Part shown: positions 4,590 through 16,797 of the stretch, in pieces
Layout of the letters: each line of letters begins with the position of its first letter
Numbering within the stretch: position 1 is the stretch's first letter
From: Candidatus Pelagibacter sp.
Lineage (GTDB): Bacteria; Pseudomonadota; Alphaproteobacteria; Pelagibacterales; Pelagibacteraceae
Length of the DNA stretch: 64,000 nucleotides
Assembly: GCF_052049815.1 (NCBI RefSeq)
Contig: NZ_JBNGZG010000002.1
Coordinates: 798 to 64,797 of the forward strand
Reading direction: 5' to 3'
Translations under genes and position numbers: made by a program
Notes under the pieces: generated by a model
What the model saw: the letters and a program-made list of their open reading frames with translations, nothing else
Database searches by the model: none
Told to the model about the DNA's origin: nothing

Positions 4590-5741
4590 TTGAAAACACT
4601 TGAAAATTTAATCAAATCTGAACAACCGTTTATACTTTATAAGACCAATGCAGGTTTTAAATTATACACTCAATTTTCAAAAAAAATTATTTTAAATAAT
4701 AAAAATATTAAAGGTTTTTTAAATAATATAAAAAAAAAGAAATCAAATTTCAAAGAAACAGATTTGTTTGTAGGTTTTTTTGGTTATGAAATATTAAATA
4801 ATTTAATCGGCATTAAACTTCCAAAACAAAAAAGTATTAATTTTCCAAAAGGAATTTTTTATAAACCAGAAAAAGTACAAAATTTTAAAAATATTGATTA
4901 TAAAAATGAAAGGAAAAAAAAAATTTATTCTAAATTTAGAATAAATTTATCACTTAATCATTACACAAAAATATTTGAAAAATTTAAGAAGAAAATCAAA
5001 AGTGGTGATACTTATCAAATTAAAATTTGCACAAAGTATAAAAATAAATCAATTATTGATACATTAGATTTGTTTTCTAAATTATGTAAAACTAATCTAG
5101 CACCAGAATCTTTTTTTATTAAAGATAAAGATTATTCAATAATAAGCTGTTCTCCTGAAAACTTGATAGACAGAAAAGGAGATTTTATTTCGACTAAACC
5201 TATAGCTGGAACACTGAAAAAGAACAAGAAATTAAATAAATTAAAAGCACTCAAATATTTTAGAAAAAATATTAAAGAATCTAAAGAGCACAATATGATT
5301 GTTGATATGGAAAGAAATGATTTATCAAGAATTTGTGTGCCCGGGACAGTCAGAATTAAAAAAGAAAAAAAAATTGAAGAATATAAAGATCTATTTCATT
5401 ACGTAACTTTGATTGCTGGAAGATTAAGGAAAAATATAAAAATTATTGAAATAATTAAATCAATGATGCCAGGTGGATCAGTAATTGGTTGCCCAAAAAT
5501 TAGCACCTTAAATTTATTAAACAATCAAGAAAGAGAAAATAGAAATATTTACACTGGCAGTTTTGGTTTTATAAAGTTTAATGGTGATATGAGATTTAAT
5601 ATAATAATCAGATCATTATTGTATTATAAAAATATATCAGAAATTTCAGTTGCATCTGGAGTTGTTGTAGATAGCAAAGCTAAAAATGAATTTAATGAAA
5701 ATTTTATTAAAGCTAAAGCTCTATTAGATTTATTCAAATGA
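4590..5741 (+). CDS. pabB: Aminodeoxychorismate synthase component I (chorismate-binding)
   Basis: TTG start; SPENL, TKPIAGT, EHNMIVDMERNDL, PGGSVIGCPK, IYTGSFG, ASGVV. Confidence 0.8.
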   Translation: MKTLENLIKSEQPFILYKTNAGFKLYTQFSKKIILNNKNIKGFLNNIKKKKSNFKETDLFVGFFGYEILNNLIGIKLPKQKSINFPKGIFYKPEKVQNFKNIDYKNERKKKIYSKFRINLSLNHYTKIFEKFKKKIKSGDTYQIKICTKYKNKSIIDTLDLFSKLCKTNLAPESFFIKDKDYSIISCSPENLIDRKGDFISTKPIAGTLKKNKKLNKLKALKYFRKNIKESKEHNMIVDMERNDLSRICVPGTVRIKKEKKIEEYKDLFHYVTLIAGRLRKNIKIIEIIKSMMPGGSVIGCPKISTLNLLNNQERENRNIYTGSFGFIKFNGDMRFNIIIRSLLYYKNISEISVASGVVVDSKAKNEFNENFIKAKALLDLFK

Positions 5742-6295
5742 TTTATATAATTGATCATAAAGATTCTTTTACATTCAATGTTGTTCATCAATTTTCTTTA
5801 TTTGATAACGTAGAATGTGATGATTATTCAGAAATTAGAGAAGACAAGTTAAATAAAGCTTCCACTATTATTTTTTCTCCAGGTCCAGGCTCTCCAAAAG
5901 ATTATAAAACTACCTCAAAAATTTACAAAAGATTTAAAAATAAAAAAAAAATTATTGGAATTTGCTTAGGTTTTCAGCAGATACTTTATTGTGAAGGTGG
6001 AAAAATTATTGAACAAAATAAGATATATCATGGTTATCAATCAAAAATTAAAGTTGTATCTAAAAATTCTTTATTCAAGAAAAATACTAATTTTGTGGTT
6101 GGCAGGTATCATTCATTAAAATTAAAAGAACCTTTTAGAGCAAAAAATTTTGACATCACTATGAGATGTGCTAATTCAAACGTTGCGATGGCAATTGAAA
6201 ATAACAAAGAGAAAATCTATGGTTTTCAATTTCATCCAGAATCTTTTTTAACAATAAATGGTAACTTACTTATTAAAAAAATCTTATCGGCTTAA
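5738..6295 (+). CDS. pabA: Glutamine amidotransferase component II (PabA/TrpG type)
   Basis: IDHKDSFTFN, SPGPGSP, GICLGFQ, RYHSL, FQFHPES; coupled to pabB. Confidence 0.85.
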   Translation: MIYIIDHKDSFTFNVVHQFSLFDNVECDDYSEIREDKLNKASTIIFSPGPGSPKDYKTTSKIYKRFKNKKKIIGICLGFQQILYCEGGKIIEQNKIYHGYQSKIKVVSKNSLFKKNTNFVVGRYHSLKLKEPFRAKNFDITMRCANSNVAMAIENNKEKIYGFQFHPESFLTINGNLLIKKILSA

Positions 6296-7025
6296 AGATT
6301 ATAAAGAAATTGAATTTAATGATCTTTGGGGTGACCATGGTGTTTTCACAACGATGTGGTTATTTGATAAACCACAAAAAATTTTATTTTTTAACCAACA
6401 TATAAGCAATCTGATAAAATCCACAAAAGTTTTTAAAGTATATAAAACAGATTTAAAATTAAATATTTTAAAAATTTTAAAGAAAATAATTAATCCTAAA
6501 ATTAAGTACAATCATTTGTTAAGAGTAGCAATAAACAAAAAGACATTATCTGTATCAATAAGAAAAAGAATAAAACCAAAATTAGATTTTACTTTAAATT
6601 TGGTAAATCTTAAAAGAGTTAAACCTGAATATAAAAATTTAAAATATAAACAAATCTTAAAACATCTTTCAAAATTAGATAATTCAAAAAATGATATAGG
6701 CTTAAGTGTAAACAATAAAGTTTTTGAAACTGGAACTTCAAACTTAGTGTTTATAAAAAATAATAAGATTTTTCTCCCAAAAAATAATTAGTATAAAGGA
6801 ATTACATTTAAATTTTTTAAAAATAAATTTAAAAAATTTTATTATAAAGACATTAAAATAAATAAATTGTCTGAATTCGATGAAATATTATTAATTGGAT
6901 CAGGAAAAGGAGTTGCCTCAGTTAAAAGAATTAAAGATTATTCCTGGTCTAGAAAAAGTATGAAATTTTACAAATTATTTTTATCCACGTATTTAAAAGC
7001 TATTAAACAATGTAAAAAATATTAA
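6258..7025 (+). pseudogene. Aminotransferase class IV / aminodeoxychorismate lyase (PabC-like) interrupted by an in-frame TAG at 6789-6791
   Basis: The same frame continues after TAG (YKGITFKFF...DEILLIGSGKGVASV...) to TAA 7023-7025, which overlaps the HIT ATG. GVFTTM, ETGTSNL and downstream class IV motifs; follows pabBA. Confidence 0.75.
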
Positions 7026-7426
7026 TGATAAGAGATCCCAATAATCCTTGCCTATTTTGTAATGCTAAAGAAAGTGGTATTGCCGTAGAAAATGAATTTG
7101 CATACGCAAGTTATGACTCTTATCCAGTTTCAGATTTTCATTGTCTTATTATTCCAAAAAGACATGTAAAAGATTATTTTGAAATGAGTGACGAGGAATT
7201 GTTGGCTTGTAATGATTTGATTATTAAAATTAAAAATGAAATTTTAGCTAAAGATAAAACTGTTAAAGCTTTTAATATTGGAACTAATGCAGGAAAAATG
7301 TCTGGTCAATCAATCATGCATTGTCATATCCATCTGATTCCAAGAAGAGAGGGGGATGTCGAAAATCCTCAAGGTGGAGTAAGGTCGGTTATTCCTAAAA
7401 AACAGCACTATAAAAGAGAAAATTAG
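7025..7426 (+). CDS. HIT family nucleotide hydrolase
   Basis: CLFC N-terminus, HCLIIPKRH, histidine triad HCHIHLIPR. Confidence 0.93.
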   Translation: MIRDPNNPCLFCNAKESGIAVENEFAYASYDSYPVSDFHCLIIPKRHVKDYFEMSDEELLACNDLIIKIKNEILAKDKTVKAFNIGTNAGKMSGQSIMHCHIHLIPRREGDVENPQGGVRSVIPKKQHYKREN

Positions 7427-7520
7427 ACTATTAATAAAGACAAATTGACCAATACTTACATATTGAAGTCCTATTCAAACTACTCTAGAAAAGCTTAAAA
7501 CTAATCAAAATTTTAAACTT

Positions 7521-8312
7521 ATGTTACAAAATAATCCTTTTCTAAATTTAGCTGAATTTGTTTCACCTTACGCTATGCAATCATTTATTATTGCCATGGT
7601 AGTTTTGATAGCTGCTGGAACTATAATTCAAATGATTCATCATAAAAATGTTACTTATTTTTTAAACAATGCAAAAAAAGCAAAATTATCTGCTACGAAA
7701 GCATTAAGTGCAGGAGAGAAAGCCACAATTATTGCAAAAACTACAGTTGTAGATATTGGTACAACATCTGAATTAGGAATGGGTAAAAGAAGATTAGCGC
7801 ATGTATTAGGTATGTATGGAACTATTTTGTTTTGGGTTTCATCTGCTGTCTTAGTTTTTTGTTATACTAGTGAGGGATCGTCAACTACTGTTTGGTCAAC
7901 TTTATGGCATGTTGGAGCTATACTTACTTGCCTAGGTGGATTTTGGTTTTGGTTTTTTTTGAGAGTAGATGTATCTGCAGAAGCTTTTCCTTGGTATAGA
8001 ATTATAAAAGCGGACTTATTTGTATTAGCTCTTTTAGCTTGTTCAACATTTGGTTTAGCTTGGTCATATTTTCAATTTTCAAATCAAATGGGTTTAAGTT
8101 ATTTGTTCTTAGCCTTATTTGTAGTTGCTAACATTGTTTTGTTTGGTGGAGTATACTGGTCTAAGTTTGCTCACATGTTTTATAAACCTGGAGCAGCTAT
8201 TCAAAAAAATCTTGCTGAAGCAGATGGATCAAGAGACAATCTTCCTCCTCCAGCTGATGCACCTGAACAGTTTGGTTTAGGAATAAAAAGAGAAGAACCA
8301 AAACATTATTAA
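7521..8312 (+). CDS. aprM: Adenylylsulfate reductase membrane anchor AprM
   Basis: Multi-TM protein directly upstream of aprB; RRLAHVLGMYG, WSKFAHMFYKP, C-terminal ADGSRDNLP. Confidence 0.85.
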   Translation: MLQNNPFLNLAEFVSPYAMQSFIIAMVVLIAAGTIIQMIHHKNVTYFLNNAKKAKLSATKALSAGEKATIIAKTTVVDIGTTSELGMGKRRLAHVLGMYGTILFWVSSAVLVFCYTSEGSSTTVWSTLWHVGAILTCLGGFWFWFFLRVDVSAEAFPWYRIIKADLFVLALLACSTFGLAWSYFQFSNQMGLSYLFLALFVVANIVLFGGVYWSKFAHMFYKPGAAIQKNLAEADGSRDNLPPPADAPEQFGLGIKREEPKHY

Positions 8313-8344
8313 CCATGAGATTATTTAAAAAGGAGAAAAAATAA

Positions 8345-8815
8345 ATGTCAACTTTCGTATATATGACTAGATGTGATGGCTGCGGTCATTGCGTAGATAT
8401 CTGTCCTTCAGATATAATGCACATTGATGAAACTATAAGAAGAGCAAAAAACATTGAACCAAATTTCTGCTGGGAATGTTATTCATGTGTTAAAGCATGC
8501 CCAAACCATGCAATTGATGTAAGAGGTTATGCTGATTTTGCTCCAATGGGTCACAGTGTGAGAGTACGAAGAGAAGAAGAAAAAGGAACTATCTCTTGGA
8601 AAATAAAATTTAGAAATGGTACAGAGAAAAACTTTGTATCTCCAATTACAACAAAACCTTGGGGTGAGTTTATTCCAAAACTTGCTGATGGTGACAAGCC
8701 AAATCAAGGAGAAATAAATTCACAAAGACTTTATAGAGAACCGGAAGGATTAAATACTGGCGGTGAACTTCCATCAGTTCCAAAAGAATCTTTTAAAAAA
8801 GGAGTTTATTACTAA
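8345..8815 (+). CDS. aprB: Adenylylsulfate reductase beta subunit
   Basis: Two 4Fe-4S motifs (CDGCGHC...CP, CWECYSCVKACP), VRGYADF; AGGAG SD. Confidence 0.96.
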   Translation: MSTFVYMTRCDGCGHCVDICPSDIMHIDETIRRAKNIEPNFCWECYSCVKACPNHAIDVRGYADFAPMGHSVRVRREEEKGTISWKIKFRNGTEKNFVSPITTKPWGEFIPKLADGDKPNQGEINSQRLYREPEGLNTGGELPSVPKESFKKGVYY

Positions 8816-10674
8816 TGGCTAAACATAAAACTCATTACGAAGAATGTGATATTTTAGTTGTCGGTGGAGGTATGGCCGGAACAGGTGCTACTTTTGAAGC
8901 AAGACACTGGGGAAGAGATATGAAAATTGTTTGTGTTGAAAAAGCAAACATTGATAGAAGTGGAGCTGTAGCGCAAGGTCTTTACGCTATTAATTGCTAT
9001 ATGGGAATGCAGTGGGGTGAAAACCAACCTGAAGATCATGTTAGATACGCAAGAAATGATTTGATGGGAATGGTAAGAGAAGATTTAGGTTATGACATGG
9101 CTCGTCACGTAGACTCAACAGTTCATATGTTTGATGAATGGGGTTTACCTATGATGAAAAATGAAAAGACAGGTAGATATTTAAGAGAAGGTAAATGGCA
9201 AATAATGATTCACGGTGAGAGTTATAAACCAATTGTAGCTGAAGCCGCAAAGAAATCTGCAGATAAAATTTATAACAGAATAATGATCACTCATTTATTA
9301 ATGGATGAGTCTCAACAAAATAGAATTGGTGGAGCAGTTGGCTTTAACATGAGAACAGGTGATTTTCATGTATTTAGAGCTAAAGCTGTAATTGTTGCAG
9401 CAGGTGGAGCTTCACATATCTTTAAACCTAGAGCTGTTGGTGAAGGAATGGGTAGAACTTGGTACGCACCTTGGAGTAATGGTTCTGCATATGCATTACC
9501 AATTGCAGCTGGTGCAAAAATGACTCAAATGGAAAATAGAATTGTTCTTTGTAGATTTAAAGATGGTTATGGACCAGTTGGTGCTTATTTCTTACATCTA
9601 AAAACATATACACAAAACGCTAATGGTGAGAATTATGAGAAGAAATGGTATGATCAAACTAAAGAGCTAGTTGGAGAATATATTGATCACCATCCAACTC
9701 CTACTTGTTTGAGAAATCATGCATTTATTCAAGAAGTTGCAGCTGGCGGTGGACCAATTCACATGGTAACAAAAGAAGCTTTCCAAGATCCACATTTAGA
9801 AACTGTTGGATGGGAAAACTTCTTAGGTATGACAGTTGGTCAAGCGGTTGTATGGGCTTCACAAAATATTGATCCAAAATATACTAATCCAGAATTAACG
9901 ACATCTGAGCCATATGTAATGGGTTCACATGCAACATGTTCTGGAGCTTGGGTAAGTGGACCCGAAGATTTGTCTCCACCAGAATATTTCTGGGGATACA
10001 ACAGAATGTTAACAATTGACGGTTTATTTGGTGCTGGTGATACTGTTGGTGGAAGTGCGCACAAATTCTCATCAGGATCATTTACTGAAGGTAGGTTAGC
10101 AGCAAAAGCAGCTGTGAAATACATTGAAGATAAGAAAGCTGATGGCATCAAAGTTTCAGACAAACAATGTGAAGAGTTTAAAACTAAAGTTTATAAACCA
10201 TTAGATAATTACACAATTGGAAGAAACGAAATTACAGGAGGAACTGTTTCTCCAAGTTATATTTCGCCAATTCAAGGTTTACAAAGACTCCAAAAGATAA
10301 TGGATGAGTATGTTGGAGGAATAACTTCAAACTACATGACTAATGGAAATATGCTAAAAAGGGGACTTGAATTACTAGAATGGCTTCAAGAAGATCTAGA
10401 AAACGTTGGTGCTGAGGATTATCACCAGTTAATGAGAGCATGGGAGCTTAAACATAGAGCTTTAACTTCTCAGTGTGTTACAGAACATACTTTGTTTAGA
10501 GAAGAAACTCGTTGGCCAGGTTATTATTACAGAGGCGATCACATGAAACTTGATGATGAAAACTGGCATTGCCTAACAGTTTCAAGAAGAGATCCAAAAA
10601 CTGGTAAGTTTACGATGGAAAAAGTACCTGTTTACCACATTGTAGACGAAAAAGAGGAAAAGAAAGCTTCTTAA
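8815..10674 (+). CDS. aprA: Adenylylsulfate reductase alpha subunit
   Basis: GGGMAGTGA FAD site, RSGAVAQGLYAINCY, GKWQIMIHGESYKP, FKDGYGPVGA, HKFSSGS, EETRWPGYY. Confidence 0.97.
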   Translation: MAKHKTHYEECDILVVGGGMAGTGATFEARHWGRDMKIVCVEKANIDRSGAVAQGLYAINCYMGMQWGENQPEDHVRYARNDLMGMVREDLGYDMARHVDSTVHMFDEWGLPMMKNEKTGRYLREGKWQIMIHGESYKPIVAEAAKKSADKIYNRIMITHLLMDESQQNRIGGAVGFNMRTGDFHVFRAKAVIVAAGGASHIFKPRAVGEGMGRTWYAPWSNGSAYALPIAAGAKMTQMENRIVLCRFKDGYGPVGAYFLHLKTYTQNANGENYEKKWYDQTKELVGEYIDHHPTPTCLRNHAFIQEVAAGGGPIHMVTKEAFQDPHLETVGWENFLGMTVGQAVVWASQNIDPKYTNPELTTSEPYVMGSHATCSGAWVSGPEDLSPPEYFWGYNRMLTIDGLFGAGDTVGGSAHKFSSGSFTEGRLAAKAAVKYIEDKKADGIKVSDKQCEEFKTKVYKPLDNYTIGRNEITGGTVSPSYISPIQGLQRLQKIMDEYVGGITSNYMTNGNMLKRGLELLEWLQEDLENVGAEDYHQLMRAWELKHRALTSQCVTEHTLFREETRWPGYYYRGDHMKLDDENWHCLTVSRRDPKTGKFTMEKVPVYHIVDEKEEKKAS

Positions 10675-10696: not shown

Positions 10697-11050
10697 TTGA
10701 AAGATTTACTCAATAAATCTGATGAAGAAATCTTTGCAATCGCAAAACCTTATTGGGAAAATCTAATTAAATCCTCAAATCTTAAGGATTATGGTGGTTT
10801 TACAAGAGATTTTTCCACTCAAATGTTATTTGGAGCAAATGAAGTTGAGCTAGGAAAGCAATGGGCTAATAATAAAGTAATAACCAACCTTCATGAAACC
10901 TACAATCCTTTTGGAACTCTTAGAAGAGGAGATCATATTACAGTGTTGATTAAACAGACAAATAAAGAACTCCCAGGTGAGTTTTTAGGAAGATTAGTTT
11001 TAGGCGTTGAGGATGATGAAGTTAAAATCTTTGGCGCTACCATATATTAA
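10697..11050 (+). CDS. Conserved-looking hypothetical protein, 117 aa
   Basis: TTG start after an AAGGA-like SD; 22 nt after the aprA stop; soluble alpha/beta composition. Confidence 0.7.
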   Translation: MKDLLNKSDEEIFAIAKPYWENLIKSSNLKDYGGFTRDFSTQMLFGANEVELGKQWANNKVITNLHETYNPFGTLRRGDHITVLIKQTNKELPGEFLGRLVLGVEDDEVKIFGATIY

Positions 11051-11272: not shown

Positions 11273-12358
11273 ATGGAAGTTTATTTACCAATAGCGGAAG
11301 TTAATATTAATGCTATTGAAATACTTCTTCTCAGTGCAATTGTAGGTGTTCTATCTGGTTTATTCGGGGTTGGTGGTGGATTTTTAATGACACCTTTTTT
11401 AATTTTTTTAGGTGTGCCTCCTGCCTATGCAGTTGCAAATGAAGCAAATAATATTTTAGCCACTTCAGTCTCTGGCTCAACAACACATTATTTAAAAAAT
11501 ACTTTAGATTATAAGATGGGTTTAATGATAGTTACAGGTGGTGCTATTGGTACTTTGTTAGGAATTTATACTTTTTCATACTTTCAAGATATGGGAAAAA
11601 TTGATGTAGTTATTGCTTTAGCTTACATGTACATTTTAGCAATAATTGGTTCTTTAATGTTGGTCGAGAGCCTTGGTGAGATAGATAAACAGAGAAGAAA
11701 TGTTTTAGTTAAAAAAAAATTACATGTTCATTATTGGATACATGGTCTTCCTTTCAGATTGAGATTTCCAAAATCAAAATTATATGAAAGTGCTTTTACA
11801 CCAATTATTATTGGATTGTTTGTTGGATTTATTGCTGCGATAATGGGAATTGGAGGTGCTTTTATTTTAGTTCCCGCAATGATTTATATCATTGGTATGC
11901 CAACCAAGTTAGTTCCTGGGACTTCTTTATTTGTTACAATTTTTGTGAGCGTGATTGTTACTTTCTTACACGCTTTTAATTATGGCTCAATTGATTTACT
12001 TTTAGTTTTAATGCTTGTTACAGGATCAATCATTGGTGTGCAAGTAGGTCAAAAACTTGGAGAAAAAATTAATAGTAGTGGATTAAGAGCTTTGTTAGCG
12101 ATTTTATTATTGTTAGTTGGAATTGCAATGGCATACGATACTTTTTTTGCCGAGAAGGTTGAAACAGAAATAGTTAAAGTTTTAGATAATGATTTAAATT
12201 TCTTTTCAGTGTTTATTCAAAAATTTTCACAAGAGATGCCTTTATTTTATAGTTTGTTTACAATTATGTTTGCTATTTTTTTAGGTGTGGCGGCAGCATT
12301 TATTAGAAGATTTTTTTCTAACCTTAGAAAAAAATTAGCAGTTCCTGCTAATAAGTAA
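11273..12358 (+). CDS. Sulfite exporter TauE/SafE family permease with C-terminal extension
   Basis: SGLFGVGGGFLMTP and IMGIGGAFILVPAM repeats, GTSLF. Confidence 0.88.
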   Translation: MEVYLPIAEVNINAIEILLLSAIVGVLSGLFGVGGGFLMTPFLIFLGVPPAYAVANEANNILATSVSGSTTHYLKNTLDYKMGLMIVTGGAIGTLLGIYTFSYFQDMGKIDVVIALAYMYILAIIGSLMLVESLGEIDKQRRNVLVKKKLHVHYWIHGLPFRLRFPKSKLYESAFTPIIIGLFVGFIAAIMGIGGAFILVPAMIYIIGMPTKLVPGTSLFVTIFVSVIVTFLHAFNYGSIDLLLVLMLVTGSIIGVQVGQKLGEKINSSGLRALLAILLLLVGIAMAYDTFFAEKVETEIVKVLDNDLNFFSVFIQKFSQEMPLFYSLFTIMFAIFLGVAAAFIRRFFSNLRKKLAVPANK

Positions 12359-13424
12359 ATATATCTGTAAATATTTCTATACAAAAAATACTTACTACAC
12401 CAACTGTTGTCATTCCAATTAAACCTACAACAAAAGGTTTATAACCCATAGACTTTATATCCCTAAAATTGGTAGACAATCCAATTGCAGCCATTGCCAT
12501 TGTAAGAAATACTTTTGAGGAGGTTTTTATTAATGAAATAGTATCAGTCCAAACTTGATTATTGCTTTCTATAAAATAATAATCACCTAAATTTCTAACT
12601 ATTATCATTCCTATAAATCCTAAAACAAAGTATGGGAAAATACTTACTAATGAATAATTTTTCTTAACAACATTTCCTCTGTTATATAGGAACGCAAATA
12701 GAGGTATCATAATTACTAAAAATGTATTTCTTATTAATTTTGTTACAGTTGCTATATTTAGTGTTTCTGGACTGTTAAATTGCTGTTCATAAATTAATCC
12801 TGCAGCTGCCACTTGAGATGTTTCATGAATTGAAGTACCAAGGAAAAGTCCAACTAAAAGAGACTCCGCATCAAAGTAAAAATTTGCAAAATAAGGATAA
12901 ACAAGCATTGAAAAAATACCAAACAAAGTCATGTTTGCGATTGCATAAGATACTTCACTTTTATTAGCTTTTATTACAGGAGCAGTTGCCATAATTGCAG
13001 TAGTACCACATACAGTTGACCCAATTGAAATAAGATAAGCCATTCTAGTAGGGATCTTTAATTTTTTAATTACAAGTTTTATGACCACTAAAACACTTAT
13101 AATGCAGATAATAATAAGAGGAATTGCAATAGTTCCAAACTTTAAGAATTCAAAAGGCTTCAATTGTATTCCTAAGCAGATAATCCCAAGTTTTAAAATA
13201 TTTTTCTGAGTAAAATCTAAACCAATTAAAAACAATTTTCTGATTTTGAAAATATTTCCAAGTATCATTCCAATTAGAATAGCAAACATTGCAGTGGATA
13301 TTGGACTTTTGTCGTAACCTAATAACTCAATTCCAATTACATTATTTATTCCTTGAGAAAGAGAGTATAAAATGAATGCAAGTATAATGCCTGGTATTAC
13401 TACCAATTTTTTCTTTATAGACAT
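12348..13424 (-). CDS. YeiH / putative sulfate exporter family (SuyZ/TauZ-like)
   Basis: LKLGIICLG, GSTVCGTTAIMATAP, GTSIHETSQV, KLIRNTFL, MAMAAIGL; directly downstream of suyAB. Confidence 0.85.
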   Translation of the reverse strand: MSIKKKLVVIPGIILAFILYSLSQGINNVIGIELLGYDKSPISTAMFAILIGMILGNIFKIRKLFLIGLDFTQKNILKLGIICLGIQLKPFEFLKFGTIAIPLIIICIISVLVVIKLVIKKLKIPTRMAYLISIGSTVCGTTAIMATAPVIKANKSEVSYAIANMTLFGIFSMLVYPYFANFYFDAESLLVGLFLGTSIHETSQVAAAGLIYEQQFNSPETLNIATVTKLIRNTFLVIMIPLFAFLYNRGNVVKKNYSLVSIFPYFVLGFIGMIIVRNLGDYYFIESNNQVWTDTISLIKTSSKVFLTMAMAAIGLSTNFRDIKSMGYKPFVVGLIGMTTVGVVSIFCIEIFTDIFTY

Positions 13425-13440
13425 TATACCTTATTGATAA

Positions 13441-14607
13441 TTAAGCACTTCTGTAAAGTTTAGTCATAACAAACTCTCTATGACCTAAAGCTTCAGCACA
13501 AGTTAATCTTCCATTTGCAACTCTTAAAGTTGTTTCTATTAACTTATCTCCTGCTTCTGACATATTCATTTCTCTTGATAGGATTTTTGAAACATCACAA
13601 TCAATATGTTCACCCATACCTTTTACAGTTAATGGATTAGCTGTTAATTTCACAACTGGTTCAATTGGATTTCCAACAATATTACCTTGTCCAGTTGGAA
13701 ATAAATGAATATTAAATCCTGCTGCAGCTTGAAGTGTTACACATTCAGCTGCTGCTGATGAAGTATCCATAAAATATAAGCCTTTACCTTTTTTTGGTTC
13801 TTCTGCTGGTTCTAAAACATCAACAAATTTTCTTGATCCAATTTTTTGGAAATTTCCAAAAGCTTTTTCTTCAATTGTAGTTAAGCCACCAGCAATATTT
13901 CCAGCTGTAGGTTGACTTTCAGAAAGATCATCTGTTGCTTCTTTTAAAATGAAATCGTTGTACGCACTCCAAGTTTTCATAAACTTATCTGAAGCCTCTT
14001 TTGTTGCACCTCTTGTAGCACAAACTTTTTCTGCTCCAGTTAACTCAGAAGTTTCACCAAAACATAAATGAACTCCTAGAGGCTCTAGTTTATCCATCAA
14101 GTTTCCAACTGTAGGATTAGCTGCTAATCCAGATGTTGTATCAGACTCTCCACATTTAACGGAAATCCATAAATCACTTATTGGACATTCTTCTCTTTGT
14201 TTTTCAGATGCCCACATAACAAATTCCTGAGCTTTTTTTGAAGCTTTCATTACAGTTCCAATGTCACCTGTACGCTCTATATGAAAACCTTCAACTGGCT
14301 TCCCAGTCTTTGCAATTCCATCAACAATTTTTTTTGTCCATTTAGGCTCGATACCTATTACAATCACCGCAGCAACATTTGGGTTACTTCCAGTTCCTAT
14401 CATTGTTCTAAAATGTAGTTCTAAATCAGCGCCAAATTGTAATCTCCCGTAAGAGTGTGGCAATGCAATTGTTCCTTTAATGTTATTTGCAACAGCTTCC
14501 GCACATGCATTTGAAATATCGTCTACTGGCAAGATAATTACGTGATTTCTTGTTCCGGCTCTGCCATTTTCTCTTTTATAACCTAAAAAACTCTTTGGAA
14601 TTTCCAT
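13441..14607 (-). CDS. suyB: (R)-sulfolactate sulfo-lyase beta subunit (UxaA family)
   Basis: [62 protein letters not shown]. Start placed at ATG 14607, just after the suyA stop. Confidence 0.85.
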
Positions 14608-14611
14608 ATTA

Positions 14612-14896
14612 CTACCATTTCTTCGTTTTGACATTGTGAACATGAACGTGCTCACCTTTTTTGATTGATTTAACTACTTTACCAATATCATGACCGTATT
14701 TAAGAATCGTATCACCTTCATTTAGGTCAGTCATTGCAATTTTGTGCCCTAAAGGTATTTCATCTACTGATTGTATATTTACTGTGCTGTCATTTTCCAT
14801 TACCCAGCAAGAACAATCTTGTTTTGGAGTTATTTTTTCAATAACAACTACTCCTACGTTGTCTTTTTCATCGTGAATTATGATATCTGTAGCCAT
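14612..14896 (-). CDS. suyA: (R)-sulfolactate sulfo-lyase alpha subunit (SAF domain)
   Basis: [34 protein letters not shown]. Start placed at ATG 14896. Confidence 0.85.
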
Positions 14897-14912
14897 ATAT
14901 ATTGTGTCGAAT

Positions 14913-14966
14913 TGTTTGTTTGAATTTTCAAAATTCTTATATATTAATCGCAAAAATTAACAAACA
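14913..14966. promoter_or_regulatory. Palindromes in the divergent suyA/xsc promoter region (candidate operators)
   Basis: GAATTTT-C-AAAATTC at 14922-14936; TGTTTGTT (14913-14920) and AACAAACA (14959-14966). Confidence 0.35.
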
Positions 14967-15012: not shown

Positions 15013-16797
15013 ATGACTAAAATGACAACTGAAGAAGCTTTTGTAAAAGTTCTACAAATGCATGGTATTGAACATGCTTTTGGTATTATTGGATCAGCAT
15101 TCATGCCAATTTCAGATATATTTCCTGATGCAGGTATAACATTTTGGGACGTTGCTCACGAAACTAATGGTGGATTAATTGCTGACGGCTACACAAGAGC
15201 TACAGGAAAAATGTCAATGGTCATTGCACAGAATGGTCCTGGGATTACTGGTTTAGTAACACCAATAAAAACTGCTTACTGGAACCATACACCTCTTTTG
15301 TTAGTTACTCCTCAAGCTGCAAACAAAACTATGGGCCAAGGTGGTTTCCAAGAAGTTGAGCAAATGAATTTATTTAAAGATATGGTTTGTTATCAAGAAG
15401 AGGTAAGAGACCCATCTAGAATGGCAGAGGTTTTAAACAGAGTAATTGAAAAAGCCATTAGGGGATCTGCACCTGCTCAGATAAATGTTCCAAGAGATTA
15501 TTGGACACAAGTTATTGATATTGATCTTCCACCAATCGTAAGATTAGAAAGACAAGGTGGTGGATCTGAAGCTATAGATAAAGCTGCTAACTTATTATCA
15601 AACGCAAAATTTCCAGTTATACTTTCTGGGGCTGGTGTTGTAATTGGAGGAGCAATCGAAGCTACTAAAAACCTAGCTGAAAAATTAGATGCACCAGTTT
15701 GCTCTGGTTATCAACATAATGACAGTTTTCCAGGAAGTCATCCATTAGCAGTAGGTCCATTAGGATATAATGGTTCAAAAGCTGCTATGGAATTAATTTC
15801 AAAAGCTGATGTTGTGTTAGCTTTAGGAACAAGACTAAATCCTTTTTCAACTTTACCAGGTTATGGAATTGATTATTGGCCGAAAAATGCAAGCATTATT
15901 CAGGTAGATATTAATCCAGATAGAATTGGTTTAACTAAAAAGGTGACTGTTGGTATCAGTGGTGATGCAAAATTAGTTGCAGAACAAATCTTAGCTAAAC
16001 TTTCATCAAGTGCTGGTGACACTGACAGACAAACAAGAAAAGATTTAATTCATCAAACAAAATCTGCGTGGTTACAAAAACTTTCAAGTTTAGACCATGA
16101 AGATGATGATGAAGGTACAGTTTGGAATAAAGAAGCAAGAGAAAGAGATGCTGATAGAATGTCACCAAGACAAGCTTGGAGAGCAATTCAAGCTGGTATG
16201 CCTGATGATGTTATTATCTCAAGTGACATTGGAAACAATTGTGCAATTGGAAATGCTTATCCAACTTTTGAAAAAGGTAGAAAGTATTTAGCACCAGGTT
16301 TATTTGGTCCTTGTGGTTATGGGTTCCCATCAATCTTAGGAGCAAAAATTGGTTGTCCTGATACACCTGTAATTGGTTTTGCAGGAGATGGAGCATTTGG
16401 AATTAGTATGAATGAGATGAGTTCATGTGCAAGAGAAGAATGGCCAGCGATAACAATGGTTATTTTTAGAAATTATCAATGGGGTGCAGAAAAAAGAAAT
16501 ACAACTCTTTGGTTTGATAACAATTTTGTTGGAACAGAGTTAGATCCTGAATTAAGTTATGCAAAAGTAGCAGATGCTTGTGGTCTTAAAGGTGTAACTG
16601 TAAGAACTATGGAAGAAACTACTAACGCGATCAAACAATCATGTGAAGATCAGAAAAAAGGAATAACTACTTTTATTGAAGTAGTTTTAAATCAAGAGTT
16701 AGGTGAACCATTTAGAAGAGATGCGATGAAGAAACCAGTAAGAGTTGCTGGTATCAACAAAGCAGACATGAAGAAACAACCTTCATTGAATTCTTAA
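15013..16797 (+). CDS. xsc: Sulfoacetaldehyde acetyltransferase (ThDP-dependent)
   Basis: MTTEEAFVKVLQMHGIEHAFGIIGSA, QNGPGIT, GDGAFGISMNE ThDP motif, WGAEKRNTTLWFDNNFVGTEL. Confidence 0.95.
   Translation: MTKMTTEEAFVKVLQMHGIEHAFGIIGSAFMPISDIFPDAGITFWDVAHETNGGLIADGYTRATGKMSMVIAQNGPGITGLVTPIKTAYWNHTPLLLVTPQAANKTMGQGGFQEVEQMNLFKDMVCYQEEVRDPSRMAEVLNRVIEKAIRGSAPAQINVPRDYWTQVIDIDLPPIVRLERQGGGSEAIDKAANLLSNAKFPVILSGAGVVIGGAIEATKNLAEKLDAPVCSGYQHNDSFPGSHPLAVGPLGYNGSKAAMELISKADVVLALGTRLNPFSTLPGYGIDYWPKNASIIQVDINPDRIGLTKKVTVGISGDAKLVAEQILAKLSSSAGDTDRQTRKDLIHQTKSAWLQKLSSLDHEDDDEGTVWNKEARERDADRMSPRQAWRAIQAGMPDDVIISSDIGNNCAIGNAYPTFEKGRKYLAPGLFGPCGYGFPSILGAKIGCPDTPVIGFAGDGAFGISMNEMSSCAREEWPAITMVIFRNYQWGAEKRNTTLWFDNNFVGTELDPELSYAKVADACGLKGVTVRTMEETTNAIKQSCEDQKKGITTFIEVVLNQELGEPFRRDAMKKPVRVAGINKADMKKQPSLNS

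Follow-up and report, generated by a model that had tools for sequence, protein, structure and literature searches.

HIT and the organosulfonate-sulfite-APS island

A gene for a histidine-triad (HIT) protein lies directly upstream of aprMBA, the genes for adenosine 5′-phosphosulfate (APS) reductase, in a 64,000-nucleotide stretch of a Candidatus Pelagibacter genome (contig NZ_JBNGZG010000002.1, forward-strand positions 798 to 64,797), which we refer to as the window. Named relatives identify the source genome, a 1.35-Mb assembly of 100 contigs with an estimated completeness of 99.85%, as Pelagibacter (SAR11). An original prediction, made from the letters of the window, proposed that this HIT protein may substitute for a missing ATP sulfurylase (Sat) by discharging the APS that APS reductase forms from sulfite. 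From the analysis described here, we conclude that HIT is an intact gene for a Fhit-like nucleotide enzyme and an optional accessory of the SAR11 organosulfonate-sulfite-APS island.

The open reading frame at 7025..7426 (+) encodes a 133-aa HIT-family protein of the Fhit-like 'HxHxHxxPR..GD' branch, in which the sequence HCHIHLIPR is present. Its match to PF01230 in Pfam scored 63.3 bits against a cut-off of 21.5 and covered profile positions 6-97 of 98. The histidine triad (H99-C-H101-I-H103-L-I, in agreement with H-phi-H-phi-H-phi-phi) leads into the stretch LIPRREGD, and a CxxC motif (C9/C12) lies near the N-terminus. Across 30 subfamily members H103 never varies, H99 and H101 each show at least 90% conservation, and the subfamily alignment shows three hallmarks: the CxxC motif, the triad and a C-terminal P-x-GG-V-R-x-V-I-P motif. 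The predicted structure (predicted local distance difference test score, 92.7) has the alpha+beta HIT fold and matched Sulfolobus ST2152, Fhit, Rv2613c and Bacillus Hit in Foldseek with E-values of ~2e-8. Template modelling (TM) scores by query were 0.67-0.72 for Fhit versus 0.55-0.62 for Hint1 and Hint2, and a sequence search of solved structures returned ST2152 (61 bits), Rv2613c (41 bits) and Fhit (32-41 bits). The PR..GD motif and the predicted fold group the protein with Fhit, Ap4A phosphorylase and bacterial Hit, not with Hint1, a placement that is branch resemblance and not orthology (20-23% identity).

Narrower assignments of the HIT protein were rejected. It scored 19.7 bits against the HinT equivalog NF007965 (cut-off 206) and 58.9 bits against NF045834 (cut-off 130), and it reached 46 bits against the actinobacterial ATP adenylyltransferase model NF052622 (cut-off 290), the candidate for an Ap4A phosphorylase. 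The branch of GalT and APS:phosphate adenylyltransferase (APAT) was also rejected, the protein being a single domain of 133 aa with no match to PF01087 or PF02744. The genome contains three HIT genes: the one adjacent to aprM, a Hint-like one that adjoins the histidine-biosynthesis genes hisE and hisF, and a third type. The Hint-like paralogue outscores the aprM-adjacent protein on both HinT models, also under their cut-offs (86.3 bits for NF007965 and 65.0 bits for NF045834). The third paralogue (137 aa, with QLHIHIIARK; G000:C4:28766-29176, L003:1384-1797, -) has no NCBIfam match and adjoins a gene for a 261-aa protein that by sequence resembles a TauE/SafE-family membrane protein, which would make it a second HIT-TauE adjacency. 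We conclude that the HIT protein itself is an ordinary member of its superfamily and that any novelty would lie in its physiological pairing with APS reductase.

The enzymes that might otherwise discharge APS or oxidize sulfite were sought across the whole genome. The absence of sat from the window, on which the original prediction was based, extends to the entire assembly, in which PF01747 gave 0 matches, window included; as a control, the same profile matched in 5 of 14 reference genomes. PF01087 and PF02744, the families that make up a GalT-type APAT, had no match in the whole genome, and a SorA-type sulfite dehydrogenase was not found there, the single Oxidored_molyb (PF00174) protein being MsrP, which is accompanied by MsrQ. 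A 523-aa protein was dismissed as a CysD/CysH candidate because its PAPS_reduct match reached no more than 29.6 bits and covered 76 of the profile's 175 positions.

The spacing of 94 nt between HIT and aprM (spacer, 7427..7520) and the identity of the downstream genes were as originally described, the latter being confirmed for aprB and aprA by TIGR02060 and TIGR02061. These genes (aprMBA, 7521..10674) encode a membrane-anchored, lineage-I APS reductase: aprM (7521-8312, +) gave a weak QmoC-like match, aprB (8345-8815, +) matched TIGR02060 with 187.5 bits and aprA (8815-10674, +) matched TIGR02061 with 996.6 bits. They are followed by orf117 (10697..11050, +), which encodes 117 aa without a Pfam or NCBIfam match and comes right after aprA in every lineage-I locus examined. 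Non-SAR11 Pseudomonadota have orthologues of it (46-61% identity) downstream of aprA as well; their lineage-I loci share aprMBA-orf117, and a SlyD-like gene (~170 aa) usually comes next. We conclude that orf117, although uncharacterised, regularly accompanies APS reductase and is conserved; in the HTCC1062 arrays considered below, it drops together with aprA (r = 0.69).

Beyond orf117 lie a gene for a TauE/SafE-family sulfite/sulfonate exporter (11273..12358, +; PF01925, 156.6 bits) and, on the opposite strand, one for a putative sulfate exporter of the YeiH family (12348..13424, -; TIGR00698, 144.7 bits, under the cut-off). By synteny, the YeiH gene fills the slot after suyB that HIT takes in other SAR11 genera. 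The next genes, suyB-like (13441-14655, -) and suyA-like (14612-14953, -), belong to the UxaA/GarD family and are 93% and 76% identical, respectively, to the suyB and suyA-like genes of a comparison locus, L007; from family and context, they are predicted to encode the subunits of a dehydratase of the sulfolactate sulfo-lyase type and to be a source of sulfite. A second source of sulfite is xsc, for sulfoacetaldehyde acetyltransferase (15013..16797, +), which is 93.6% identical to its L007 orthologue, itself matched by NF005713 (1036 bits) and TIGR03457 (972 bits). The layout of the island is therefore pab or CADD, then aprMBA, orf117, tauE, (yeiH), suyAB and xsc, with HIT at its edge; the island as a whole generates sulfite from sulfonates and oxidizes it.

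Upstream, HIT is the last gene of an operon that begins with the aminodeoxychorismate synthase genes pabB (4590-5741, +; Chorismate_bind, 240.9 bits) and pabA (5738-6295, +; GATase, 133.5 bits) and continues with a pabC-like class IV aminotransferase gene (6258..7025, +), both halves of which are matched by Aminotran_4. The translational coupling of HIT to the pabC-like gene, already pointed out in the original prediction, is visible as a TAATG overlap at 7023-7027, in which the pabC-like stop codon TAA (7023-7025) shares a base with the HIT start codon ATG (7025-7027). One correction has to be added, namely that the pabC-like gene contains an in-frame TAG at 6789-6791. Because orthologues carry Tyr or Ile at this codon, the TAG is a single-base nonsense change or an assembly error. 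It divides the gene into parts of 177 aa and 77 aa in one frame, of which the second is the one to which HIT is coupled. The slot between a gene of the major facilitator superfamily and aprM is filled by pabB-pabA-pabC (window 4590-7025) in this genus and by a CADD-family putative folate-metabolism gene (TIGR04305, 301 bits; L007:3902-4573, L052:8130-8855) in four other SAR11 genera; the presence of two unrelated folate-related gene sets in one slot may reflect non-orthologous displacement of para-aminobenzoate synthesis.

Linkage of HIT to apr across genomes

In a sample of 151 SAR11-family genomes, an orthologue of HIT (E < 1e-28, identity at least 41%) was present in 35, all of which (35 of 35) also carry aprA, and in 34 of the 35 the two genes lie <4 kb apart. 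Two arrangements were observed. The genus of the window, together with one other, has pabB-pabA-pabC-HIT-aprMBA; two further genera have HIT after suyB instead, its start overlapping the suyB stop, and there it abuts tauE and is convergent on the apr operon, with a homocysteine methyltransferase-like gene intervening in some genomes of this second type. Only 5 of the 151 genomes have sat, and none of the 58 high-quality ones does. A complementary distribution of HIT and sat was considered and rejected, since sat is nearly absent from the family whether HIT is present or not.

A second sample consisted of 80 loci from named Pelagibacteraceae species, retrieved in a search for distant aprM loci with an aprM alignment, which yielded Pelagibacteraceae only; 79 were informative and 1 was too short. 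HIT lies upstream of aprM, in the conserved order pabB-pabA-pabC-HIT-aprM, in 69 of the 79 informative loci, after tauE in 4 and at neither place in 6, so that 73 of the 79 have an island HIT. Because these orthologues are intact (63-98% identity) and occupy the same position in 69 species, we judge from the sequence comparison that the gene is real and under constraint.

Outside SAR11, we searched a sample of 400 Pseudomonadota genomes, 8 of which have aprM-type apr. Strong matches to the HIT subfamily were found in 11 of the 400: in 5 of the 8 genomes with lineage-I aprMBA versus 6 of the 392 others. Four HITs from aprM-type genomes, representing four families, form one clade (99% SH-aLRT). 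In one sulfur oxidizer a GNAT (PF13480) gene is next to HIT (L154:6027-7797), and this GNAT is 54% identical to the product of a gene directly upstream of aprM in another genome (L053:10782-13192). GNAT, HIT and aprMBA may thus form a three-way association.

Within SAR11, the HITs of the two arrangements (before aprM or after suyB) fall into two separate clades in a poorly resolved radiation (tree of 133 columns), and a tree forced to hold all island HITs in a single clade was not rejected (approximately unbiased test, p = 0.26). Both a single origin followed by relocation and two independent recruitments are compatible with this result. The broader kinship of the subfamily was drawn from an exhaustive profile-free search, which gave 69 cluster representatives at < 1e-30; searches of a large clustered protein collection were dominated by near-identical marine SAR11 sequences and brought up no informative names.

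Candidates for the APS-to-sulfate step

SAR11 bacteria degrade taurine, 2,3-dihydroxypropane-1-sulfonate (DHPS) and related sulfonates ocean-wide and express AprBA strongly. Because most SAR11 lack ATP sulfurylase (10.1101/2022.09.23.509140), the APS-to-sulfate step in these organisms is without an assigned enzyme, a gap that is acknowledged in the literature. The present analysis narrows the choice for this step to two candidates, both small and cloneable, namely the island HIT and a pair consisting of a P-loop protein and an HxGH nucleotidyltransferase.

By analogy with Fhit-type enzymes, we consider it possible, with a probability of roughly 0.35, that APS is an in vivo substrate of HIT, which in this accessory role would be either an APS hydrolase or an APS phosphorylase. 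A specific link between HIT and apr is suggested by the persistent placement of HIT in the island, by its occurrence there at two positions and by the enrichment of the subfamily in lineage-I apr genomes. Any Fhit-like HIT can be expected, on the same analogy, to attack APS via a covalent His-AMP. In the mechanism that we infer, H101, the middle His of the triad, would attack the alpha-phosphate of APS and expel sulfate, and water, or possibly phosphate, would then release the adenylate from the His-AMP intermediate as AMP or ADP, respectively. The adenylate would go back to AprBA, and the sulfate would leave via YeiH or TauE. In this role HIT would be an overflow or efficiency valve and not an obligatory replacement for ATP sulfurylase. 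It is a more doubtful extension that the CxxC...HxHxHxxPRRxGD...PxGGVRxVIP subfamily as such serves lineage-I AprMBA physiologically, as its APS sulfohydrolase or APS:phosphate adenylyltransferase, having been recruited at least twice to the SAR11 sulfonate island and retained by several sulfur-oxidizer families.

A number of observations weigh against a role for HIT in APS turnover, and those from gene distribution are considered first. HIT is dispensable: it is missing from 25 of the 60 aprA-positive genomes, 23 of which are also without sat, and among 31 high-quality apr-positive genomes it is present in 26 and absent from 5. In the HIT-less apr loci that were inspected, the core island is unchanged, and either suyAB abuts tauE or pabC abuts aprM. 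The latter junction was seen in four species from which HIT is gone, and in one of these 8 codons of the HIT C-terminus persist just upstream of aprM, which points to deletion of HIT from the pabC-aprM junction. Furthermore, HIT is confined to apr-positive genomes partly because the gene lies in the island and is lost with it, and this restriction is therefore no independent evidence. At apr loci outside SAR11, a phmmer search with three HIT seeds (open reading frames of at least 70 aa, within ~8 kb of aprA) found HIT near apr in 0 of 31 loci, 11 of them alphaproteobacterial and 20 from further Pseudomonadota, and sat adjoins apr in most of the 31. The linkage between HIT and apr thus held within SAR11 (34 of 35 carriers) and at none of the other loci; beyond SAR11 the association shows as enrichment at the level of whole genomes. 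Moreover, the sulfur oxidizers that carry the HIT subfamily all have sat, so that any HIT role in APS metabolism there would be alongside Sat and not in its place.

The wider relatives of HIT point in the same direction. Among the nearest (45-55% identity), fusions are frequent, the partners being HNH nucleases, NUDIX, GNAT or a helicase plus PLD-like domain, and standalone relatives adjoin RuvC, NUDIX or adenosine-kinase-like genes without sulfur context. The HIT subfamily as a whole carries no sulfur signature. Extra copies of the subfamily in SAR11 lie in variable or restriction-modification regions. In one Pelagibacter genome, the second copy is a 329-aa protein with a C-terminal HIT domain, encoded in a variable region near typA (L044:5211-6200). 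A sister genus without apr has decayed HIT remnants only (L049, G132:C3:62470-62682; L050, G127:C2:9786-9911), one of which lies <2 kb from genes that by sequence would encode a putative DNA methyltransferase and a restriction subunit.

Expression data from strain HTCC1062 also argue against co-regulation of HIT with apr. We used the arrays in Data Set S1 of PMC5069961, which comprise 29 samples with sulfur limitation as the condition. The published changes for aprB and aprA in this strain are 3.13- and 5.88-fold (PMC5069961), and SAR11_0836 and SAR11_0837 changed 3.11- and 5.88-fold between control exponential and sulfur-limited stationary cultures; SAR11_0836 is therefore aprB and SAR11_0837 is aprA. 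Another HTCC1062 supplement gives SAR11_0842 as the GarD-like (suyB) gene. Conserved gene order and these anchored tags point to SAR11_0835 as aprM and suggest that SAR11_0834 is HIT, a tag that found no direct confirmation in the papers searched. The log2 signal of the putative HIT gene was ~6.2, compared with 8.9 for aprM and 10.5 for aprA, and it changed 1.5-fold as against 3-6-fold for aprM, aprB and aprA. Its correlation with these three genes across the 29 arrays was r = 0.18, 0.06 and 0.19, respectively, whereas the apr genes correlated with each other at 0.76-0.84; with pabC, the correlation was weak (r = 0.38).

These differences are consistent with the structure of the 94-nt spacer (+ strand), which contains TTGACC (7445-7450) and the palindrome TTGAA-N6-TTCAA (7463-7478). 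Because both elements are kept in about 20 Pelagibacter species (alignment of 21 loci) and HTCC1062 aprM reads ~3 log2 units over the presumed HIT gene, the spacer probably holds aprMBA's own regulated promoter and operator, downstream of HIT. The spacer has no Rfam match and no terminator-like site, and the idea of a riboswitch or terminator was dropped; no regulator gene for the putative operator was identified.

Taken as a proposal for a Sat substitute, the original prediction is thus supported in part, by the missing Sat, APAT and SorA and by the linkage of HIT to apr in two arrangements. It is weakened by the 25 of 60 apr-positive genomes that do without HIT, by the lack of co-regulation, by the 31 non-SAR11 loci and by the existence of a rival module. 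No sat gene turned up elsewhere in the genome, co-occurrence of HIT and apr is partial, and the sulfur-limitation arrays revealed no co-expression.

An explanation that we take seriously, while holding it somewhat short of even odds, is that the proximity to apr is incidental: HIT would be a general house-cleaner of nucleotides, with dinucleoside polyphosphates, nucleoside phosphoramidates or other AMP-X compounds as its substrates, and its gene would merely happen to stand at the 3′ end of an operon adjoining apr. Its restriction to apr-positive genomes would then follow from gain and loss of the island as a block. HIT is translationally coupled to pabC or suyB, not to apr, and its presumed HTCC1062 transcript follows pabC, weakly, and not aprMBA; nevertheless, adjacency to aprM is kept in 69 species even though gene order in the genus is reported to be poorly conserved (10.64898/2026.04.03.716430). 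Similarly, the optional nature of HIT in apr-positive genomes, the promiscuity of the subfamily in fusion partners and its occurrence in variable regions suit a general-purpose enzyme, but two HIT clades occur in the same island at two different positions, and, beyond SAR11, genomes with lineage-I apr carry the subfamily more often than others do. Labels in NCBIfam and JGI for such HITs are Ap4A or HinT-type hydrolases, under cut-offs, and yet a house-cleaning HIT would be added to a genome that already has a canonical Hint by hisE and hisF plus a third HIT.

A second explanation, which we regard as unlikely although it is a clear competitor, is that APS is discharged by a 135-aa P-loop protein of the APS-kinase fold together with a 123-aa HxGH nucleotidyltransferase, with HIT uninvolved. 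Together they could serve as a minimal enzyme resembling ATP sulfurylase, acting with a partner that binds APS, or they could convert APS to 3′-phospho-APS (PAPS) for sulfation, with CysQ recycling the 3′-phosphoadenosine 5′-phosphate (PAP). This module is a second candidate that is linked to apr more widely than HIT is, which further counts against HIT. In four other SAR11 genera, aprM is immediately preceded by the gene for the nucleotidyltransferase (123-130 aa), alone or paired; a fifth genus (G013) has the pair within its apr locus, beside pabB. In the genome of the window, however, the pair is unlinked to apr and lies beside a Rieske oxygenase gene; the two genes (G000:C1:25489-26264; L005:971-1749, -) overlap by one base. 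The nucleotidyltransferase was found in 54 of the 60 apr-positive SAR11 genomes, but it occurs as well in 17 of the 91 that have no apr, most of which are without sat too.

Structural comparison lends the module some further weight. In some genomes the two proteins are fused (258 aa), and a model of this natural fusion was used for the fold comparison, in which the P-loop domain filled both match lists. The predicted P-loop domain superposed best on CysC, the APS kinase of M. tuberculosis (Z 17.6; root-mean-square deviation 1.7 A over 124 residues), and it also matched the APS-kinase-like domains of ATP sulfurylases, above other small-molecule kinases. The HxGH protein shares its superfamily, the HxxH nucleotidyltransferases, with ATP sulfurylase. 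The nucleotidyltransferase itself gave no PF01747 match, and, because its weak sequence matches are NMN adenylyltransferases and NadR, a role in NAD salvage is equally possible. In Atlas, it falls in largely viral clusters. HTCC1062 annotates the P-loop protein as cysC (SAR11_1262), and Table 3 of PMC5069961 shows cysC together with aprA in 5 of 5 strains, but transcripts of the module are low in HTCC1062. A phosphosite (T119) is listed for the HTCC1062 protein of the module in the phosphoproteome supplement of PMC13198564.

It is very unlikely that no dedicated enzyme exists and that a slow clearance of APS falls to promiscuous enzymes, the canonical Hint for example, or that AprMBA carries low flux while sulfite leaves mainly via TauE, so that loss of sat needed no replacement: although at least one genome (G048, 93% complete) has aprA without sat, an island HIT or the nucleotidyltransferase, a sulfite exporter is conserved in the island and sulfate excretion on taurine has not been shown for cultured SAR11 (10.1101/2022.09.23.509140), aprA is among the island's most transcribed genes and responds to sulfur status in the arrays (PMC5069961), the island contains the putative sulfate exporter YeiH, and AMP trapped as APS would presumably be costly to a minimal-genome cell.

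Since natural strains with and without HIT exist, the question of its role is directly testable. If HIT does act on APS, a Sat-independent route (sulfite + AMP to APS, and APS to sulfate + AMP or ADP) would be completed in the ocean's most abundant bacteria, and the promiscuous APS activity of Fhit-type enzymes would gain its first physiological role. Estimates of the energy yield of marine bacterial sulfonate oxidation, and of the balance of sulfate versus sulfite release, would have to be revised, and presence or absence of HIT would mark strains that differ in their capacity to oxidize organosulfonate-derived sulfite.

Comparison with known systems

The APAT ('ADP sulfurylase') of Thiobacillus denitrificans is a HIT-superfamily enzyme that discharges APS after APS reductase in a sulfur oxidizer. 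Unlike the 133-aa, single-domain SAR11 HIT, it is a two-domain protein of ~360 aa from the GalT branch. APAT is named in passages of the reviews PMC8232776 and PMC6382920, and in the literature searched we found no paper linking a histidine-triad protein to aprBA or aprM.

The sat-aprMBA operon of sulfur oxidizers such as Allochromatium vinosum (PMC3779200) contains the same lineage-I aprMBA, followed by orf117 in the loci fetched, and sat and aprMBA lie in the same stretch in 10 of the 12 non-SAR11 aprM-type loci fetched. In contrast, SAR11 has lost sat, and the slot upstream of aprM is filled by pabBAC and HIT or by CADD and the small nucleotidyltransferase.

Rv2613c, the Ap4A phosphorylase of M. 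tuberculosis, resembles the SAR11 protein in its HIT fold and PR..GD motif, gave the top TM score by query (0.74) and is phosphorolytic, but it is longer (~195-218 aa), has an N-terminal extension and has no link to sulfur metabolism.

Fhit is a close parallel in architecture, being a single-domain HIT protein with HxHxHxx-PR-x-GD, and the SAR11 model matches Fhit structures that include a complex with adenosine/sulfate as an AMP analogue. The two differ in that sequence identity is low (20-23%), Fhit is eukaryotic and without a link to APS reductase, and the SAR11 subfamily has the N-terminal CxxC and the C-terminal P-x-GGVR-x-VIP. The statement in the original prediction that HIT enzymes can act on APS is borne out for the Fhit and Hint4 types (PMC4613722): Fhit is an adenylylsulfate sulfohydrolase (EC 3.6.2.1) that splits APS to AMP and sulfate in vitro, and a passage of the same paper, citing its references 7, 8 and 11, states that Hint4 and DcpS hydrolyse APS to AMP and phosphorolyse APS to ADP. 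Arabidopsis Hint4 and C. elegans DcpS are thus HIT proteins that carry out exactly the chemistry proposed for the SAR11 HIT.

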